The notes below the pieces were generated by a model that saw only the letters and a list, made by a program, of their open reading frames with translations, ran no database searches and was not told the origin of the DNA. Positions 30,963-40,549 of a DNA stretch of 64,000 nt are shown here, in pieces. This stretch comes from Candidatus Hodarchaeota archaeon (GTDB lineage Archaea > Asgardarchaeota > Heimdallarchaeia > Hodarchaeales > Hodarchaeaceae), in contig JAEOTC010000031.1 of NCBI GenBank assembly GCA_016840035.1, forward strand, positions 1-64,000. Reading direction: 5' to 3'. A program made the translations under genes and the position numbers. Every line of letters begins with the position of its first letter. Positions within the stretch are counted from its first letter, which is position 1.

Positions 30963-33900
30963 TTGGTACATATCAAAGAAATTAGGATGACCGGTTGGAA
31001 ATCATATGGACCCGGTACTGTCCGAATGCCTCTTGCGAAGGGATTTACGGTTATTGTTGGGCCAAATGGGAGTGGAAAATCCAATTCTATTGATGCTGTT
31101 AACTTTTGTCTAGGTGCTCTCTCTAAAAAGAGTATGCGAGCAGATAAGATGGTAGGCCTCATCTATAACGGAATTGGAGGCAAAAGAAAGTCAGAAAAGG
31201 CATTTGTTGAAATTGTTTTTGATAATGCTGACTTTGCCATCCCTATAAGAGAAAAAGAAGTTATTGTAAGTCGAGAACTAAAAACCAATGGCTCAGGAAC
31301 TTATAGACTGAATGGTAAAAGAACCACTCGGACTGATATTTTAGATAAACTTAGAATTGCAGGTATTGATGTCGTTAATAGTTATAATATTATTGCTCAA
31401 GGGCAAGTCGGCGAAATTGTTGGAATGAATCCAAATGAGCGACGCCAAATGATGGAAAATCTTGCTGGCGTCGGCCAATTTGATACGAAGAAGCAATCTG
31501 CTCTATCAGAATTAGAAGAAGCAAATAAGAGAATGGATGAGCTTCAGCTCCTTGTAAATGAAGTCGCAAAGCGTGTGGAATCTCTTCGAAAGGAAAAACA
31601 AGATGCTGAAAGGTGGAGTCAACTAGACTCTGAAATTTTAAATCTTAAGGCCCTCCTAATTTCATATTCATTTCACACCAATAATCGGGCATTGGTAAAG
31701 TTTGATGAGGATATTGCATCAATCCGCAGTAATCAGGAACAATTTGTAACCGAGCGATCACAGATTGATACAAACGTAGAAGAAGTCACCGAGAAAATTC
31801 GGACCCTTGAAGATTCATTAATTCGTGTTGAAACTTCACTAAAGGAGATCAGGACTTCCGCAGAAGAAAAGAATATTGAAAAAACAAAAGTTCAGGAAAA
31901 GGCTGAATATAATAAAAAGACAATTAAATCGAATGAGAAACGAATAAAGCAGTTAGAATCACGTTCTGAAGAAATTCAGAAGAAAATTGAAGATGATAGT
32001 AATACGAAAGAGGAACTCTTACAGAAAAAAGACGAATTAGTCGAGCGGATAGAACAGATTCAAAATGATAGAACTTCTCTTGAAGAGGATCTTGAACTAA
32101 AAAATCAGGAATATGACGAAATCAAGGGAGAATTTGAAGACGGAGAGAGACGTTTAAAGATTGAAAATGATAGATTAACAAAAACTCAGGTCTCCTTTGA
32201 AGTATCACAAAATATGGTTAATGCTTTTCAAAATAATGTTGATGAATATCAACGACGGCAATCAGAAGCAGAAGAACAGATTAAATCAGCTTCAGAAAGA
32301 GCTGAAGAACTTAAGATTCAAATTGAAGAAGAAAATACTCAACAAACAGAAGCATCTGGGAAATTAGAGGAAATCGAAACTAAAAAATTGAATTTAGAAA
32401 CTCAAATTGAGAATATCGATGATCAGGTAAGAGAATTAAGTGACAAACAACTAGTTTTAAAGGCAAAAATTGAAACGATATCTTCCTTCGTTAAATCAGA
32501 AGCAGGAAAAGAGAATCCAGCGGTATCCTATATTAATGGGAAGAAAAATGATGGCAATATTGCTGGAGTTCTTGGTGAATTCCAAAATTTGTCTGATGAA
32601 GGAATTACTCTTCCTCCAGAAGTTGGCCATCTGTCTGATGCAATAATAACTGATACCATTGAATCTAGTTTAAACTGTATAAATCTTTTAAAAGAACATT
32701 CAATAGGTGCTGCGAATTTTATTCCTCTTGAAAAATTCAAACTTAAAAAAACTGATAATTTCTCAAATATAGTGAAGAAAGTTAGAGAACAGAATCAAGT
32801 CGTTACATCATTATCAGAAGCTGCTAATCTTTGGAAAAAACATAGTTCCACTTTATCAACCGCTGATGGTGACATTTTTTACTCGAACGGAATAATTTAC
32901 GGAGGATTTCATCTACTTTCTGCTCAAGCCTCCGTTGATTCGCTTGATTTAGAGATGGGCCAAATCACTTCTGAACTTGAGGAATATAAATCTAAGTTGA
33001 AAGAAGAAAAGGAAAACCAGAAAAAACTTCTGGGAATAGAAAAAGTGATTATTTCCTCAATAGAGAAACTCGAAAAAAGTATTCAAGGAGCTACTGTTCA
33101 GCTAAATCAACAAGAAAGTGAAATTAAACTATATACCGAGAATCAACAGAGTATTGAGGGTGAACTTGATCCATTAAAGCAAAAGCTTGAAGAACGTTTA
33201 TTGGAAAGGGATAAACAAAAACAGGAAATGGATCACCACGAGCAGAATCTTGAAGTTATCGGGGAAGAAGTAAGAAGTATTGAAGAGAGACTAGAAGCTG
33301 CAGATACAAGACCGTTATTAGAGAAAATGAATCAAATAGAACAAAAGTTAGGAAAAAGTCAAGGTCAGTTAAGTGGTATCGATTCAAGAATCGAAAGTCT
33401 CGAAACACAGAAAGAAGAAAGATCTGGGCGTTTAACTGAGACAAAAACTGAAGTTAACACAATCAAGGTTGAAACAGCTAATTTAGAAGGAGAAATTCAA
33501 GTCCTGCATGAACAAGTTGATCAGTTTAATTCCGATTTAGAAAAGATTCTAGAAAATGAAGAATCTCTCTCGACAGAGATAAAGGATTATAAATCCGATC
33601 TATCAACTCAAAAGAAATACCAAGGACAATTAATCAAGGATAAGGAACGATTAAATGAAAAAATCTCGAAAGATGAGGAGAAAGTAACTGAAATCAAATT
33701 ACAACGGGAACGAATAGCTGTAGAAACAGAAAAATTACAGAGTGAGGCATTGGATTCACAGATAGAAATTATGCCAGAAGATGCAGAAGAAATACAAAAA
33801 GTAAACGAGCAAAAAATTAATTCTGAAATAAATCGAAAATCAGATGAAAAGAAACGGCTAGAACCTGTAAATATGCGTGCTTTGAAGGAATTCCAATCAG

Positions 33901-34550
33901 AAAATTCAAGATACATAGAATTACTTGATCGACGTGACATATTAATTGAAGAACGTCAGGTTATTCTTGATTTTATCGAGGAGATTGAAACAGAGAAGTA
34001 CTCCGTTTTCATGAAAGTTTTTAAATCTGTTAACAAGCATTTCGGTCAAATTTTCAATGAGCTCTCGGGTGGAGATGCAAGACTCATACTTGAAAAAGAT
34101 CCTAAGAAAGGAGAAGATATTTTTGAAGGGGGTCTTTTTATTGAAGCTCATCCCGCAGGAAAAAAGATTGCATCTTTAGAAAGTATGTCAGGTGGAGAAA
34201 AAGCTCTCACTGCATTAGCGTTTATTTTTGCCGTTCAAACAGTTGATGCTCAACCATTCTACATTTTAGACGAAATTGATGCAGCTCTTGACCCGATGAA
34301 TGTACGAAGAGTAGCGAAACTATTATATCGAATGTCTAGGAGTGTTGGTAGAGGAGGAGAGGAAGAAGAGGGGAAAAAATTACGGAAAAGTGCAGCTCCA
34401 GCGGCTCAATTCCTTGTCATCAGCCACAGGGATATTTTAATGGCATGGGCTGACAGATTATATGGGTGTACAAACGTTAAAGGCCTAAGTTCTGTTTTCT
34501 CAATTCAAATGAGTGAAGATCAACAATTAGAAAGAGATCAAGCATTTTAA
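30963..34550 (+). CDS. smc: Chromosome segregation protein SMC
   Basis: Walker A GPNGSGKSN, Q-loop IAQG, hinge G-x6-G-x3-GG (DGDIFYSNGIIYGG), PVNMRA, signature MSGGEK, Walker B ILDEIDAALD, ISHR. Confidence 0.97.
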   Translation: MVHIKEIRMTGWKSYGPGTVRMPLAKGFTVIVGPNGSGKSNSIDAVNFCLGALSKKSMRADKMVGLIYNGIGGKRKSEKAFVEIVFDNADFAIPIREKEVIVSRELKTNGSGTYRLNGKRTTRTDILDKLRIAGIDVVNSYNIIAQGQVGEIVGMNPNERRQMMENLAGVGQFDTKKQSALSELEEANKRMDELQLLVNEVAKRVESLRKEKQDAERWSQLDSEILNLKALLISYSFHTNNRALVKFDEDIASIRSNQEQFVTERSQIDTNVEEVTEKIRTLEDSLIRVETSLKEIRTSAEEKNIEKTKVQEKAEYNKKTIKSNEKRIKQLESRSEEIQKKIEDDSNTKEELLQKKDELVERIEQIQNDRTSLEEDLELKNQEYDEIKGEFEDGERRLKIENDRLTKTQVSFEVSQNMVNAFQNNVDEYQRRQSEAEEQIKSASERAEELKIQIEEENTQQTEASGKLEEIETKKLNLETQIENIDDQVRELSDKQLVLKAKIETISSFVKSEAGKENPAVSYINGKKNDGNIAGVLGEFQNLSDEGITLPPEVGHLSDAIITDTIESSLNCINLLKEHSIGAANFIPLEKFKLKKTDNFSNIVKKVREQNQVVTSLSEAANLWKKHSSTLSTADGDIFYSNGIIYGGFHLLSAQASVDSLDLEMGQITSELEEYKSKLKEEKENQKKLLGIEKVIISSIEKLEKSIQGATVQLNQQESEIKLYTENQQSIEGELDPLKQKLEERLLERDKQKQEMDHHEQNLEVIGEEVRSIEERLEAADTRPLLEKMNQIEQKLGKSQGQLSGIDSRIESLETQKEERSGRLTETKTEVNTIKVETANLEGEIQVLHEQVDQFNSDLEKILENEESLSTEIKDYKSDLSTQKKYQGQLIKDKERLNEKISKDEEKVTEIKLQRERIAVETEKLQSEALDSQIEIMPEDAEEIQKVNEQKINSEINRKSDEKKRLEPVNMRALKEFQSENSRYIELLDRRDILIEERQVILDFIEEIETEKYSVFMKVFKSVNKHFGQIFNELSGGDARLILEKDPKKGEDIFEGGLFIEAHPAGKKIASLESMSGGEKALTALAFIFAVQTVDAQPFYILDEIDAALDPMNVRRVAKLLYRMSRSVGRGGEEEEGKKLRKSAAPAAQFLVISHRDILMAWADRLYGCTNVKGLSSVFSIQMSEDQQLERDQAF

Positions 34551-34561
34551 GCTGATTAACT

Positions 34562-35422
34562 ATGTCTGAACCTGAAAATATCCAAGAGGAAGATTCATCA
34601 GAAACTGACGATGAATATATCAGGTTATTCAGTCATCGTGAGCAATTTTTTCTGGAAGAACCTTATGTTTATTTAATCAATCCAGATCTTTTCCCGGAAA
34701 GAGTCGCATACGTTAAAGATTTTAAACTAAAAGAGGTATTACCTGATTTCCATAGAAAATTACTTGATCAGGGATTAGATTTCCGCATTTTAGGACAAGC
34801 AATTTACTCTGCAGCCAGAATTCATAAAAAGAAGGTCAGTCTAGCAATTCAGTATGAGAAAAAACAAGAAGAAAAAATTTCTATTAGAACAAAACGAAGA
34901 GCCTTTCAATTCAAGATTCCTTTACCATATTATATTACTCGAGAACTACTTTCGCTTGCGGAAAGTGCAAATCCAGATGAATTTTATGCAGAACTCCTTC
35001 TAGGGCTTCAAGAAGAAGATGAAAAACTTAAAATTGAAAAAATAAAGGAAGAAAAGAGGAAACAAAAGGGAACGGGAGAGGAAAAACGAAAAAGACGAAA
35101 ACTAGAAATTTCTGACTTCGAAAACTTTGATTACGAACTAGACCTAGATCGTGTAGCGATTGAGGATATTGTGAATAGAACCTTCGAAATAATAAAAGCA
35201 CTTGCTAAGCAAGATAAAAACAGTGAAGCTGAATTTACTAAAGTAGTTAGAGGGATGGAAACTAAAGAAGGATCCGATGAACAAAAACGTCTTACCAGAG
35301 CAAGAGTATTGATTTCATTACTTTATCTATTCCGTGATGAGTCAATCACAGCTGAACAAGAATTAAATCCACCCTATGAGATATATATCAAGGTTATCGG
35401 AGAAAGAAAAATGAAAGCGTAA
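34562..35422 (+). CDS. scpA: Kleisin ScpA
   Basis: Directly after smc; N-kleisin DFRILGQAIYSAARIHKKK and C-terminal winged helix RARVLISLLYLFRDESITAEQE...PYEIYIK. Confidence 0.8.
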   Translation: MSEPENIQEEDSSETDDEYIRLFSHREQFFLEEPYVYLINPDLFPERVAYVKDFKLKEVLPDFHRKLLDQGLDFRILGQAIYSAARIHKKKVSLAIQYEKKQEEKISIRTKRRAFQFKIPLPYYITRELLSLAESANPDEFYAELLLGLQEEDEKLKIEKIKEEKRKQKGTGEEKRKRRKLEISDFENFDYELDLDRVAIEDIVNRTFEIIKALAKQDKNSEAEFTKVVRGMETKEGSDEQKRLTRARVLISLLYLFRDESITAEQELNPPYEIYIKVIGERKMKA

Positions 35423-35426
35423 GGGT

Positions 35427-37826
35427 TTACACCCCTACTTCTGCACGAGTAATTTCTGTTGACCTAGCAAGGAAATAATCGCCTAAAACGATTTTCCCCA
35501 TCAAAACAATAAATGAATCTGCTAGACTAGCAATACCTATTGTTTCACCAGTATCTTCCTTAATTCCAATTATTACTTCTTCAGCATCGCGATCAGCAGC
35601 TAAATATCCTTCTATTCCCTCAAATTTATGAGAATCGATCTGACGAATCCGAACATTAGGTTTCTGTAGAAGTTTCTTCAGCAAGTCTAGATGCTTTTCT
35701 TTGTCTATCATTGTAACCAAATTTACTCGTTGATGGTTCTTTGTGGCTAGAATTAGGTCAACTGGGATATCTTCAATGAAAGGAATCAATAAGGTTATTC
35801 CACCTTTCAAACGGTCAAACATACCTGCGATATACGTTAAATTAGCTTCCTTCGAGATAATAGGAGCAGTTTGAACTTCTGGATGCTTAGTAGCTGTTAC
35901 CAATGAAGCAAGTTTTTCTAAAGAGAATAAATAGTTTTTCAATGCCTCTTCATTCTTCTTCGAGACTTCCTGGAACTTGGTAGTATAGTCTCCTAATTCT
36001 CTCTCGAGAGTCTCCATTTCGGTATGAATCCCGCTTGAAATTACTTCATTAACCTCTCCCAACTTTTGTACTGTTGAATTTGACATAGAACTTATAGTGG
36101 CAGTGGTTTTTTCTTGTAATCCGCGAGTTTTTGAAATCAATCCTTCTGATGCCTTATTAACTGTGTCTATAAGCGAAGTACCATATTTCTCGTCGTAAGA
36201 CTGCACTAGAGTCTTCATTTCGGAAACTGATTGTTGAATGCTTTGTTTTAACTCATTCATTTCATTTTGAATATGTGATGATAGTTCCTGATTTTTTGCT
36301 GTAACCTCATCCCTAAAGGAATCAATAGTTGCAGTATATTGAGAAAGAGATTGATTCTGACTAGTTGAAAAATCAGTTTTGAATCGATTTAATTCATCTT
36401 TGAGTGCAGATTCATGAGGTTTCATCGTAGTTGTAAACTCTGATACTTGTTTTTGAATTTCTTTTCTCAAAGATTCAATAGTTTCTTTCACATTGTTCAG
36501 AGAGGACTCCTTAAGTGTATTAATTTGAGAATTCGAATCTGTTTCAAACTGAACATAGTGAGATTCAATATCGGTAACAGCTTTCTCATACGTGGTATTT
36601 GCATTCGTAACCAAGTCAGTTAAAGTGCCTGTTGTATCATCAATTACTTTTTGGAAGTCATTTTCCACCTGTTGCTTCAATGAGTCCGAGTAAGAACCCA
36701 TAGAACTTTCCACTTGTGATTTTGCAGAGTTTATCTTTTCGTTGAGAGAATCATGAATGTTCTGAATCATCTCAGATATTTGATTTTGCGCAGTACTCAA
36801 GATTTCATTAACAGATTCCTTAATATTTTGCGCATTATCTGTAGTTTTACTCGTGAACTGGTCACGTGAACTTTGGAAAACATTAATTGCAGCATCTTTC
36901 TTTATCTCAAGATTTTGTTTGAAATTTTCCTGATAAGCGCCCAATGAATCCTTCACAAGCTGCTTACCCTGAGAACTCGTACTACTTACTGCATTTGATA
37001 TTTCAGAAGAAGTGTCTGTCACAAAAGTAGTTAGAGTCTCCTCTTGAGAATTTATTGAAGAAATTACGGTTTCACCAGAAGTTTTCATGGTCGATTGAAC
37101 CACTTCAAAACCCTGACTTAATTTTGTACCCGTTTCTGTGGATAACTGTTCAAAGGACTCCACAAGACCTGTATTTCTCTCAGTTTCTCCAGATTTTAGT
37201 GAATCCAATCCTTCTAAGTACTTAGCTTCTAGATCTTTACTAGATTCACCGTATTTATTCTGAAATTCGTCTGCTTTCTGTTCAAACGTTGTACCCATAC
37301 CAGATAATAGTTCTTCATGCTCTGATTGTTTCTGTTTAATAGCCTCTTCAATTTTTTTCTTGCTTTCCTCATTTGCTTGCTCAGTTTCAAGAACTGCTTT
37401 AGCAGTATGTTCCTCAATATCAGTTTGTGATTGAGTTTCGAACTGATCCACAGCGGTTTGCCCACTAGTGATACTCTCTTTCATACGTTGAGATTCATCA
37501 CCCATTGTAGCAAGAATAGTTTCCAATTTTTTAGCAACTTCTTCCCCTAATTGTGAAGCAAGAGCTTTAAGTTCAGCGATTGTTGCTTCTCCAGCACTTT
37601 TCAAATCTTTAAACGGTAAGATCGCGTGATATCTTGTAGCAATACCAGGGATATCAAAAGCATAATTTTTGTTCTTTAATCCCTCCATTGCATTCTTTAT
37701 TTCCGCTGAAGAGAACTCAGTACTCTTAATCAGTTCACCTAAACTAAGTGGACCATTTGCTAATAAGATTATATAGAGTTTACTTTCCTGATCGTTTAAA
37801 TCTAATGATTTGAGTCCCAGACTCAT
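35427..37826 (-). CDS. TrmB-like wHTH protein with roughly 570-aa coiled-coil insertion and C-terminal TrmB/PLD-like domain
   Basis: LKSLDLNDQESKLYIILLANGPLSLGEL...RYHAILP (TrmB-type wHTH), long Pro-poor helical region, C-terminal alpha/beta domain ending AADRDAEEVIIG. Confidence 0.7.
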   Translation of the reverse strand: MSLGLKSLDLNDQESKLYIILLANGPLSLGELIKSTEFSSAEIKNAMEGLKNKNYAFDIPGIATRYHAILPFKDLKSAGEATIAELKALASQLGEEVAKKLETILATMGDESQRMKESITSGQTAVDQFETQSQTDIEEHTAKAVLETEQANEESKKKIEEAIKQKQSEHEELLSGMGTTFEQKADEFQNKYGESSKDLEAKYLEGLDSLKSGETERNTGLVESFEQLSTETGTKLSQGFEVVQSTMKTSGETVISSINSQEETLTTFVTDTSSEISNAVSSTSSQGKQLVKDSLGAYQENFKQNLEIKKDAAINVFQSSRDQFTSKTTDNAQNIKESVNEILSTAQNQISEMIQNIHDSLNEKINSAKSQVESSMGSYSDSLKQQVENDFQKVIDDTTGTLTDLVTNANTTYEKAVTDIESHYVQFETDSNSQINTLKESSLNNVKETIESLRKEIQKQVSEFTTTMKPHESALKDELNRFKTDFSTSQNQSLSQYTATIDSFRDEVTAKNQELSSHIQNEMNELKQSIQQSVSEMKTLVQSYDEKYGTSLIDTVNKASEGLISKTRGLQEKTTATISSMSNSTVQKLGEVNEVISSGIHTEMETLERELGDYTTKFQEVSKKNEEALKNYLFSLEKLASLVTATKHPEVQTAPIISKEANLTYIAGMFDRLKGGITLLIPFIEDIPVDLILATKNHQRVNLVTMIDKEKHLDLLKKLLQKPNVRIRQIDSHKFEGIEGYLAADRDAEEVIIGIKEDTGETIGIASLADSFIVLMGKIVLGDYFLARSTEITRAEVGV

Positions 37827-38265
37827 ATAATCACCTGTTTAACATTTTTATTTCTCATTTGTGGATTGATAATTACTCCTAGAATCTGATAAACATCAAA
37901 TTTTGTCACAGATGAATAATTCTTCCCTGTTTCAAAAAGTGAAATCCTCAAATGAGGTAGTCGCTTAAAATTAACACTAAACAGATGTTATAAAGATACG
38001 CTTTCTAAGATAGAAGCAAAAAAAGACCATTATTTTGTATTAAAATATGTTCATAAACGTGAGAAGGCATTAACAGTCTAGAAATCTGCGTAAAATTTGC
38101 TGTTTCGACGTTAGGTTGTAATTTAACTGAATCTTAAATAATAATAATCAGCATTTCAAGAATTCAAGTTATTGCGTTAGTGTACCAAATAAATTTGATA
38201 CTGTATCTATTGAAAAATTATTATAAGTCTTGAAAACCACTTACAGTTTAGGGTAATCTGGTGGT

Positions 38266-38835
38266 ATGTACGTGGATTTAAAATCATTGAATGAAATGGA
38301 TATCCTTGAAGCAGCATTGTTTATTATTGATCGACCAGTTACCTATCAAGAACTGTCAGAAATTATTCAAAAAGATGAGAATGAAATAGAACGCTATATC
38401 GAAGAAATTAGAGACATACATTTGGACAAAAATACTGCTTATCACATTGTGAATGTGGAGGATAAAGTTGTACAGCTAAAAATCAGAGATGAAGTTGCAG
38501 CTCACCTACATTGGCCATTCATTAAGCGTAGTGATGTCCCAAGGCATCTTTTGAAGATTTTAAGTCTAATAGCGTTTAAGGAATATGTTCTCAATGAAAT
38601 AGTAAGTCCAAGTAAACTCATTCGGATTTTTGGAAAAGCAGTTTCACAGGATCTTGACGAATTACAAACCATGTCACTAATTAATGTAACGCCTAAAGGG
38701 AATAAGCGGGAAATAACTGTTACTGAAGACTTCTTAAACCTTTTTAAGTTACCTCATGAACCTGACAAAGTCAAAATCGCAATCCAGAGAGGTCTTAAGG
38801 ATTACGCTATGAGTCAACTTCAAATGACCGACTAA
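38266..38835 (+). CDS. scpB: Kite subunit, ScpB-like paralogue 1
   Basis: ILEAALFIIDRPVTYQEL, LKILSLIAF, LDELQTMSLI, VTEDFLNLFKL: tandem winged helices of ScpB. Confidence 0.8.
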   Translation: MYVDLKSLNEMDILEAALFIIDRPVTYQELSEIIQKDENEIERYIEEIRDIHLDKNTAYHIVNVEDKVVQLKIRDEVAAHLHWPFIKRSDVPRHLLKILSLIAFKEYVLNEIVSPSKLIRIFGKAVSQDLDELQTMSLINVTPKGNKREITVTEDFLNLFKLPHEPDKVKIAIQRGLKDYAMSQLQMTD

Positions 38836-38858
38836 GTACCCCAAATTGAGGAGAAAAT

Positions 38859-40019
38859 ATGTTTCGCTTATTTCGCAGAAGGAAGAAAGAGGATACGAAA
38901 GAACCTGTAGAAGAGAAGGTTCCAACGGAGACTGTAGTCGAGGAAAAATCAGTAATTCCTGAAGTCCCAAGCATTGAAGAGAAAGTAGAAGAAGAGCAAG
39001 TTTTTGAAACAAAAGAAACCCCTTTTGAAGATAAGTTCGCCCAATTAACGCATATTCTTCCCGAAACCCTCTTAGAAGAAGAACCAACCACACCTGAACA
39101 AAAAATTCTACCTTTTATTCAAAATGTAATCGAACAAGGCTCTTCCTTTGCCGATTTCATGTCTCCTCAGATTATAAGCAAAGAATCAGAAGGAGAACTA
39201 AAATTAAGGGAGGAAGAATACGTTATCACAAGGAAAGAACTCCCCCCAGCTTCTCTTGAAGAACGAATTGATGGAGCTCTGTTTTCGGTCGGAAGACCGA
39301 TTCATGCAGATGAGTTAATCGAAAGTTTTGAAGAAGACTCACCAACAGTCAAACGCGCAATAAGAAAGTTGAGTAGGAAAAGACAACGTACCAGTGCAAT
39401 AGTAGTTGAAGAAATCTCCAAGGATAGGTGGGTAATGCAACTCAACCCAATATTCCATGAATTTTTCCAACCTTTGCTACCCGATCAATTTCTGTTGCCT
39501 GATGAAAGGAGAGTATTAACAGAGATCGCCTATCGTCAACCAATTTCCTTAGCGTTGGTTAAGAAAATGGTCGTTGGAATGGGCCCTCTTAAGATTAATG
39601 AAATCTGTAAGAAGTTGGAAGAACAAAGTTTCATTGTATCGGAGCAAAGAGCAAGATCCTTGATTTTCACCACGACACCTAAATTTGCTAGTTCATTTGG
39701 GTTTGACAATGAAAGCCGTAGATTAAAATTACAGATGCTTTGGAGATTGAAACGGTTGATGGGTGACTTTGAAGCAGAAGAGGAGGAAGAGGGTGAGGAA
39801 GAATTACTCGAGACTCAAGCAACTACAGAAACTCAACCTGAATCCGACACAATCAAACCTCCCACGGATGGGGAACCTCATGAGCCAGAATTAGAGGAAG
39901 AACAACCTCAGGTCGTAGAAGAAGAACCCCTTACTGATAGTGTGGATGCAAATAGTACAGATCGGATGATAAAAGAAGTCTCAGAAATAAAGGCAGATAT
40001 TCTTTCAGAAGAAGAGTGA
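38859..40019 (+). CDS. scpB: Kite subunit, ScpB-like paralogue 2 with long acidic N- and C-terminal extensions
   Basis: RIDGALFSVGRPI, VLTEIAYRQPIS, TTTPKFASSFGF core flanked by Glu/Pro-rich tails. Confidence 0.82.
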   Translation: MFRLFRRRKKEDTKEPVEEKVPTETVVEEKSVIPEVPSIEEKVEEEQVFETKETPFEDKFAQLTHILPETLLEEEPTTPEQKILPFIQNVIEQGSSFADFMSPQIISKESEGELKLREEEYVITRKELPPASLEERIDGALFSVGRPIHADELIESFEEDSPTVKRAIRKLSRKRQRTSAIVVEEISKDRWVMQLNPIFHEFFQPLLPDQFLLPDERRVLTEIAYRQPISLALVKKMVVGMGPLKINEICKKLEEQSFIVSEQRARSLIFTTTPKFASSFGFDNESRRLKLQMLWRLKRLMGDFEAEEEEEGEEELLETQATTETQPESDTIKPPTDGEPHEPELEEEQPQVVEEEPLTDSVDANSTDRMIKEVSEIKADILSEEE

Positions 40020-40024
40020 CACAC

Positions 40025-40549
40025 TCACATATCGATTTTGTCAATATTATCTTTTACTAGCTTAGTGTATATCTCAGTAATGATATCCCCTCCTATTTTT
40101 GCAGAACATTCATAAAAGGGGATACTAAATGATTTGGCTAAGGCAGTACCTTCTTCAGTAGTAACTTGTCTTTCATCTTCCAGATCAATTTTATTTCCAA
40201 TAATCGCAATCGATTTTTCCTCTCCCTGAACACTACGATAATCATTTATCCAGTATTCCAACGAATCAAAGGTTTCCTTTCGAGTAATATCATAAACAAT
40301 CAGACAACCGACTGACCCTTCATAATAAAATTTGCGGAGTTTACCAAAATACTCCTGACCTGCGGTATCATGTAAAATGAGCTTAACTTCTTGTGTGTTG
40401 ATTGTTATTACTTTAGTAGTAATATCAACTCCAATCGTTGGCATATAATTCGTAGAGAAAGCCCCTTCAGCATACCGTCTAATAAGTGATGTTTTACCTA
40501 CTTGGTAAGACCCCGAAGAACAAATTTTCAGAACATATCTATCCTTCAT
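40025..40549 (-). CDS. Rab-like small GTPase
   Basis: GSYQVGKT, PTIGVD, DTAGQE, NKID, ECSAK. Confidence 0.92.
   Translation of the reverse strand: MKDRYVLKICSSGSYQVGKTSLIRRYAEGAFSTNYMPTIGVDITTKVITINTQEVKLILHDTAGQEYFGKLRKFYYEGSVGCLIVYDITRKETFDSLEYWINDYRSVQGEEKSIAIIGNKIDLEDERQVTTEEGTALAKSFSIPFYECSAKIGGDIITEIYTKLVKDNIDKIDM

Follow-up and report, generated by a model that had tools for sequence, protein, structure and literature searches.

Does the structural maintenance of chromosomes (SMC) complex of an Asgard archaeon use two different kite proteins where other prokaryotes use two copies of one? This question is raised by a gene cluster of Candidatus Hodarchaeota archaeon, an archaeon of the order Hodarchaeales (assembly GCA_016840035.1). 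The window analysed is a stretch of 64,000 nucleotides (nt) of contig JAEOTC010000031.1 (positions 1 to 64,000, forward strand), and the interval examined within it, 30963-40019, contains five genes. Four of them correspond to the parts of an Smc-kleisin-kite complex, with the kite represented by two ScpB paralogues, named B1 and B2 here:

30963-34550, plus strand: smc, 1195 amino acids (aa), TTG start; condensin-type Smc ATPase
34562-35422, plus strand: predicted divergent kleisin (ScpA-like, "scpA"), 286 aa, 11 nt after smc
38266-38835, plus strand: B1, ScpB paralogue, 189 aa; compact tandem winged-helix kite; PF04079 60.7 bits
38859-40019, plus strand: B2, ScpB paralogue, 386 aa; ScpB core at about 125-303; PF04079 62.1 bits

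To our knowledge, the prokaryotic SMC complexes studied so far (Smc-ScpAB, MukBEF and Wadjet) all use a kite homodimer. Eukaryotic SMC complexes have two different kleisin partners, either Nse1 and Nse3 or the A- and B-type hawks, and Hodarchaeales is the order proposed as sister to the eukaryotes. The original prediction for this locus was a ScpB1-ScpB2 heterodimer on a condensin-type Smc, described as an asymmetric, intermediate-like state. According to the analysis reported here, B1 and B2 probably do form a heterodimer, seated on the kleisin's middle region within the only Smc complex of the organism; this reading draws on predicted structures together with the history of the genes, and it is held with some reserve. 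The relation to Nse1-Nse3 is a different matter and is taken up with the family assignment below.

The two kites and their predicted pairing

Both bit scores given above exceed the PF04079 (SMC_ScpB) cut-off of 27.4 bits. B2 also matches TIGR00281 with 54.5 bits, under the equivalog cut-off of 89.2, and B1 has no NCBIfam match. The two proteins share little sequence: BLASTP aligned them with only 11 identities in 32 positions (E 1e-3), and the comparison of profiles built from 21 orthologues each gave 19% identity over 159 columns (E 4e-10). With both above the family cut-off, at this level of identity and with an intergenic gap of 23 nt, the pair can be described as two clearly different ScpB-like genes in tandem, as had been proposed.

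The AlphaFold2 (AF2) model of B1 (pLDDT 84.5) displays two winged-helix domains (WHDs), each an H-H-H-E-E unit, and a long C-terminal helix. All of its top 10 Foldseek matches are ScpB structures, from 4e-11 (6juv) to 7e-6, and weaker matches to JetB, Nse3, Nse1, MukE and MAGE follow at 2e-3 to 1e-2 (2.6e-3 to 1.4e-2 for Nse1, Nse3 and MAGE). In profile searches of the PDB, 6JUV was the best match of both B1 (2.5e-32) and the B2 core (1.5e-28), followed by 1T6S, 3W6J, 4I98 and 2Z99, and no match to Nse1, Nse3, MAGE or MukE was returned up to E 10. The B2 core aligns to positions 2-153 of the 160 of PF04079 and to residues 12-161 of 6juv. Neither protein has a RING or other extra Pfam domain, and no Cys/His-rich region can be seen in the sequences, in agreement with the earlier remark that both lack the Nse1 RING. 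On these family and profile matches B1 and B2 are classified as ScpB-type kites. The proposed intermediate-like relation to Nse1-Nse3 was not upheld, since both proteins fall into ScpB by profile and fold searches, in which Nse1, Nse3 and MAGE are 4-8 orders of magnitude weaker; the likeness is best understood as a parallel in architecture and not in ancestry.

The two paralogues differ in their motifs and in their termini, and here the earlier reading of the sequences was correct. The compact B1 carries IAFKEYVLNE, with a 5-residue insertion in place of the Y/K-Q-P motif (Y-x-Q-P) of the second WHD, and B2 carries IAYRQPIS together with long acidic N- and C-terminal extensions. The loss of Y-x-Q-P in B1 is specific to Hodarchaeales, whereas the B1-type proteins of a second order, Helarchaeales, retain K-Q-P. 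The dimerising helix of the first WHD is canonical in both paralogues (IEAALF in B1, IEGALF in B2). After the second WHD of B2 there is a basic helix, LKLQMLWRLKRL, whose pattern LKLQ[ML][LV]WRLK is conserved in both orders, and the N-terminal MFRLFRR(R/K)KK (here MFRLFRRRKK; 38859-38890) is nearly invariant in both Hodarchaeales families. Two short motifs, ETPFEEKF and FISPE, are also conserved within the otherwise variable acidic N-terminal arm of B2 in Hodarchaeales. None of these last three motifs occurs in the Helarchaeales B2-type proteins.

Three modelling runs of B1 with the B2 core, made from 23-row alignments whose rows list the genomes in one shared order, scored 0.76 (0.75-0.77), with 0.01 for the best control. 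Of 80 solved complexes 58 attain this mark, as do 2 of 110 mismatched pairs. At least 70% of contacts recur between the runs, and the partner pLDDT is 72-73. The modelled interface joins the N-terminal WHDs (nWHD-nWHD) in a quasi-symmetric manner (B1 8-21, 55-59 and 73-90; B2 128-156, 174-181 and 195-207) and is mostly hydrophobic; charge complementarity does not discriminate. The model supports a pairing of B1 with B2 via their N-terminal winged helices.

The Smc and kleisin partners

The smc product matches TIGR02169 (SMC_prok_A) with 611 bits over 3-1182, under the curated cut-off of 729, and PF02463 with 143 bits, and its orthologues are 69-90% identical across the genus. A single full-length Smc and exactly two PF04079 genes are present in the closed genome G010 and in G008 and G012, which are 96-99% complete. 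The kleisin, too, is single in complete genomes of the genus. In the genome of the window, no Pfam match to Nse1 (PF07574), MAGE (PF01454) or Nse4 was found. Two further candidates in the same genome were rejected: the other SMC-like gene, on contig C13, is Rad50 next to Mre11, and the weak PF04079 match on contig C69 is a TrmB-type helix-turn-helix (HTH) protein.

The assembly also contains a second Smc set, on the 8.6-kb contig C70, composed of a long Smc (open reading frame (ORF) of about 1500 aa), a kleisin and a canonical ScpB (116 bits). As a native second SMC complex it was rejected. The set is found in no other genome of the order, and its ScpB groups 100/100 with Lokiarchaeia ScpBs in the tree described below. 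Its Smc, kleisin and ScpB are 45%, 51% and 62% identical to the corresponding set of a Loki genome, and the tetranucleotide profile of the contig is the most deviant among the 160 contigs of at least 7 kb. Bin contamination of the assembly was estimated at 4%. Judged on its sequence relationships, C70 is most likely a mis-binned, Lokiarchaeia-like contig, with horizontal gene transfer as the alternative, and the locus in the window most likely encodes the only SMC complex of this archaeon.

The 286-aa gene had been called scpA in the original prediction. Neither its product nor 18 orthologues match anything in Pfam (PF02616 included), in NCBIfam or in the PDB profile search. The AF2 model computed on the alignment of the 18 orthologues (profile A3) has a pLDDT of 66 and displays helices in its N-terminal part, one of them long (74-115), a middle that is ordered in part, and a clear winged helix at 200-278. 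The top 13 Foldseek matches are all kleisins, with weak E-values (8e-3 or worse), and include yeast Brn1 (7q2x_C, E 8e-3), the C-terminal parts of B. subtilis ScpA and of Scc1, and Nse4; comparison with the C-terminal WHD of P. furiosus ScpA on the Smc head (4i99_C) gave a TM-score of 0.81. Because of these fold matches and the position directly after smc, the gene is assigned to a divergent kleisin; the earlier name stands by position and predicted fold, but sequence searches lend it no support. Kleisin identity amounts to 74-94% within the genus and 36-40% to the sister family. Across the two families the middle region (about 116-199, about 84 aa) has 18 invariant columns. It is longer than the middle regions of the archaeal ScpAs for which binding to ScpB was not observed, which measure 30-66 aa (PMC7055376).

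Conservation, age and layout of the locus

The original prediction had suggested a survey of the pair across Asgard genomes, and this survey found it widely kept. In 22 of the 24 Hodarchaeales genomes B1 (about 187-205 aa) precedes B2 (about 365-520 aa) on one strand, with a gap of 9-34 nt across the order, and the pair occurs in Helarchaeales as well. The two Hodarchaeales genomes that do not show it are 71% and 80% complete. Within the genus, B1 is 61-89% and B2 48-68% identical, and the arrangement is conserved as smc, kleisin, a TrmB coiled-coil gene (minus strand), B1, B2 and a Ras-like GTPase (minus strand). In the sister family (L030, L031) the locus runs smc-kleisin-B1-B2 uninterrupted on a single strand, its genes 3-160 nt apart, which makes the four-gene cluster look ancestral and suggests that the TrmB-like gene was inserted later. 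One genome, G013, has two B1-B2 pairs on different contigs (C38 and C485) and looks like a mixed bin.

The ratio of nonsynonymous to synonymous substitution rates (dN/dS) spans 0.03-0.23 in B1, 0.08-0.10 in the B2 core, 0.06-0.13 in the kleisin and 0.03-0.13 in Smc, with many pairs saturated at synonymous sites. These comparisons indicate that B1 and B2 are both under purifying selection.

Among 400 Asgard genomes, B2-type proteins were detected in 28 (profile A4, E <= 1e-40). In Hodarchaeales they are present in the genome of the window, in 19 of the 21 genomes of its family and in both genomes of the sister family. In Helarchaeales they are present in two families, in 3 of 3 and 2 of 2 genomes (including G121, GCA_019058315.1, and G118, GCA_005191415.1, both given as Helarchaeales in the table of van Hooff et al.). 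A genus-like copy (295 bits) was also seen in the incomplete bin G079 of another family (64% complete; C26:4485-5024) and is probably contamination. The Helarchaeales locus is arranged as kleisin, B1-type gene, two ORFs, an Arf/Rag-like GTPase (minus strand), B2-type gene, in some genomes one further ORF, and Smc. The Helarchaeales kleisin scores 123 bits against the Hodarchaeales kleisin profile (A3), compared with 48-55 bits for the kleisins that accompany a single canonical ScpB (Loki-type). By these scores, a kleisin subtype co-occurs with the B1-B2 pair in two orders.

The relationships of 58 ScpB-family cores were examined in a maximum likelihood tree (LG+C20) with a bacterial outgroup. 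B1 and B2 form separate clades, supported at 96/96 and 99/99, and each holds both Hodarchaeales and Helarchaeales members; the single-copy ScpBs of other Asgard families fall outside both. Because each clade holds both orders, either the duplication would be older than the two orders or the whole locus would have been transferred between them. A recent, decaying duplicate, which would have spoken against the original prediction, is excluded by the dN/dS values and the two deep clades.

Other unusual kites were seen beside the pair. Helarchaeales possess an extra short kite of 163-166 aa (PF04079 41-49 bits; L077 885-1385, minus strand; L078 917-1408, minus strand; L079 955-1446, plus strand), whose very long branch falls within the B1 clade; it is a third, fast-evolving ScpB-like paralogue. 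The closed Lokiarchaeia genome G126 has a first set at L075 (long Smc, kleisin and canonical ScpB) and a second Smc of 1206 aa followed directly by a divergent 196-aa PF04079 kite (70 bits; L076 6177-10393), with no recognisable kleisin between them.

In the window itself, the remaining features of the neighbourhood are as follows:

35427-37826, minus strand: TrmB-HTH/coiled-coil gene, 799 aa, between the kleisin gene and B1
37827-38265, no strand: AT-rich spacer of 439 nt upstream of B1, read from the sequence
40025-40549, minus strand: Ras-like GTPase, 174 aa, downstream of B2

The Smc-ScpA locus with tandem ScpB genes is present at the predicted positions, but it is not contiguous, as the minus-strand gene and the spacer intervene. 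GAGGAG precedes the start of B2. B1 and B2 are probably co-transcribed, and the spacer is likely to contain the promoter region of the pair. In the 799-aa protein a TrmB domain (PF01978, 34.5 bits, residues 5-69) is followed by about 570 aa of coiled coil and then by a C-terminal domain. Its gene interrupts the locus only in this genus: it occupies this place in all genus loci read (33-74% identity, dN/dS about 0.1), and the uninterrupted loci of the sister family lack it. A functional tie to the Smc complex is possible. A small GTPase flanks B2 in both orders, the Ras-like one downstream in Hodarchaeales and an Arf/Rag-like one of 383-386 aa upstream in Helarchaeales (L097 1751-2911, minus strand; L098 1772-2923, minus strand); this adjacency may be due to chance, small GTPases being numerous in Asgard genomes.

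A probable heterodimeric kite, its alternatives and its meaning

The mechanism proposed for these genes is a condensin-type Smc-kleisin complex in which the kite position would be filled by two ancient ScpB paralogues. B1 and B2 would pair through their N-terminal WHDs, and the kleisin would carry the resulting dimer on its long conserved middle region, where the bacterial complex has the ScpB homodimer. In the solved ScpA-ScpB2 complexes (3W6J, 4I98), two ScpB copies bind one kleisin asymmetrically. Because the copies already bind in this way, a duplication could fix each of them in one of the two positions, giving a subfunctionalised ScpB dimer. B1 would be the compact copy, and the basic and acidic extensions of B2 could regulate the binding of DNA or of partners. 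In its stricter form, with an obligate heterodimer and each paralogue fixed to one of two non-equivalent sites on the single kleisin, the proposal is given a little better than even chances.

In favour of the heterodimer stand the ancient, retained paralogues linked to one Smc and one kleisin, the uninterrupted four genes of the sister family, the length and conservation of the kleisin middle region, and a complex model that supports their pairing. Several points weigh against it. The B1-B2 score may reflect likeness to the solved ScpB homodimers, which pair in the same mode, and the B1-B2 model, the only pair run, does not separate a heterodimer from two homodimers. The ScpB of P. yayanosii (6JUV), the closest solved relative of B1 and B2, did not bind its ScpA in vitro (PMC7055376). 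Moreover, an opposite-strand gene separates the smc-kleisin part from B1-B2 in the window, and because of it the pair appears to be transcribed apart from smc and the kleisin gene in this genus.

If B1 and B2 each formed homodimers, the archaeon would have two Smc-kleisin-kite complexes to switch between, and their tasks would differ, one perhaps being basal and the other regulated or targeted. Such switching agrees with the canonical dimerising helix kept in both proteins, with the homodimeric state of all solved ScpBs and with the long extensions found on B2 alone, and homodimers are compatible with the complex model. It is nevertheless considered unlikely. Strict co-occurrence, fixed order and the short gap across the order suggest equal dosage of the two, both types were retained together in Helarchaeales, and among the genomes searched none has the B2-type without the B1-type in the same lineage. 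A similarly low probability is given to the explanation that only one paralogue still works as a kite, the other having taken up a role outside the complex such as DNA binding or regulation by its winged helices, or that neither binds the kleisin, as reported for Thermococcales ScpB. Jeon et al. found that six archaeal ScpAs did not bind their ScpB (PMC7055376), and it is 6JUV that matches both paralogues best; in addition, Y-x-Q-P is lost in B1 and the acidic tails of B2 are not found in canonical ScpB. The four-gene arrangement in the sister family, the kleisin subtype that accompanies the pair in two orders, the length and conservation of the kleisin middle region and the strong purifying selection on both proteins all argue against this explanation.

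Descent is the subject of the other two explanations. It is very improbable that Nse1 and Nse3 have their archaeal orthologues in B1 and B2 and that eukaryotes inherited the kite heterodimer from this pair. Hodarchaeales reportedly stand close to eukaryotes, van Hooff et al. suggest that Nse1 and Nse3 may have duplicated before eukaryotes arose (bioRxiv 10.1101/2024.01.07.573240), and Nse1, Nse3 and MAGE do appear among the weak fold matches of B1. However, the PDB profile searches match ScpB only, the ScpB fold matches of B1 are far stronger, and both clades nest among Asgard ScpBs in the tree, which was computed without eukaryotic sequences. The partner Smc and kleisin are condensin-type in the scheme of van Hooff et al., whose table lists Hodarchaeum with a ScpB-like kite and no SMC5/6-related subunits (bioRxiv 10.1101/2024.01.07.573240). 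Nothing but the adjacency of two genes of the same family suggests that one of them is a recent or decaying copy or that the pair is an artefact of assembly, and the probability of this is close to nil in view of the low identity, the orthologues in two orders and the selection on both genes, with frames intact in 22 genomes, closed ones included.

Compared to known systems, the locus with its preferred heterodimeric kite is most similar to Smc-ScpAB (B. subtilis; G. stearothermophilus 3W6J; S. pneumoniae 4I98; P. yayanosii 6JUV), with which it shares the parts list and gene neighbourhood (Smc, kleisin and tandem-WHD kites); the predicted B1-B2 pairing would use the same nWHD-nWHD interface. 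Smc-ScpAB, however, has one kite gene with a homodimeric product, whereas Hodarchaeales have two ancient and diverged ones; the Hodarchaeales kleisin is missed by PF02616, an insertion replaces Y-x-Q-P in B1, and B2 has basic and acidic extensions. With Smc5/6 (Nse1-Nse3-Nse4) the system would share two different kites, presumed to sit on one kleisin, and the same logic of passing from homodimer to heterodimer. Unlike Nse1 and Nse3, B1 and B2 are ScpB-type and not orthologous to them, and they lack both a RING and a MAGE signature; their partner Smc is of the condensin type and presumably a homodimer, as there is one smc gene; and Nse2, Nse5 and Nse6 are not part of the Hodarchaeales system. 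MukBEF and Wadjet JetABC are also SMC-kleisin-kite complexes, and MukE and JetB are weak fold matches of B1, but their kites are homodimers from single genes and belong, like the kleisins MukF and JetA, to other families.

The same organisms and gene families were inventoried by van Hooff et al., who reported some Asgard archaea with two or three kites and assigned these to different SMC complexes in separate operons (bioRxiv 10.1101/2024.01.07.573240). Their table gives Hodarchaeum mangrovi a condensin-type kleisin and one ScpB-like kite, and one Helarchaeales genome two ScpB-like kites without comment (bioRxiv 10.1101/2024.01.07.573240). Two kites on one Smc-kleisin are not described there, and no description of two ScpB paralogues on one Smc-kleisin was found in the literature searched. 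The presence of the pair in Helarchaeales as well, in two deep clades, the kleisin subtype that co-occurs with it and the probably foreign nature of the C70 set are added by the present analysis. The published inventories, in which one ScpB-like kite was counted in Hodarchaeum and kite paralogues were assigned to separate complexes, are refined accordingly.

These findings point to an Smc complex, conserved in these archaea, in which two distinct kites presumably share one kleisin, in genomes without a second SMC complex. The small system, expressible in E. coli, offers a way to ask what asymmetry of the kleisin partners does for DNA loading or loop extrusion, and also whether archaeal ScpB binds the kleisin at all, a question left open by Jeon et al. 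2020 (PMC7055376). If the kite is an obligate heterodimer, asymmetric kleisin partners would be seen here for the first time in a prokaryotic SMC complex, and the transition from identical to different partners, known from Nse1/Nse3 and from the A- and B-type hawks, would have happened in archaea too, on a condensin-type Smc.

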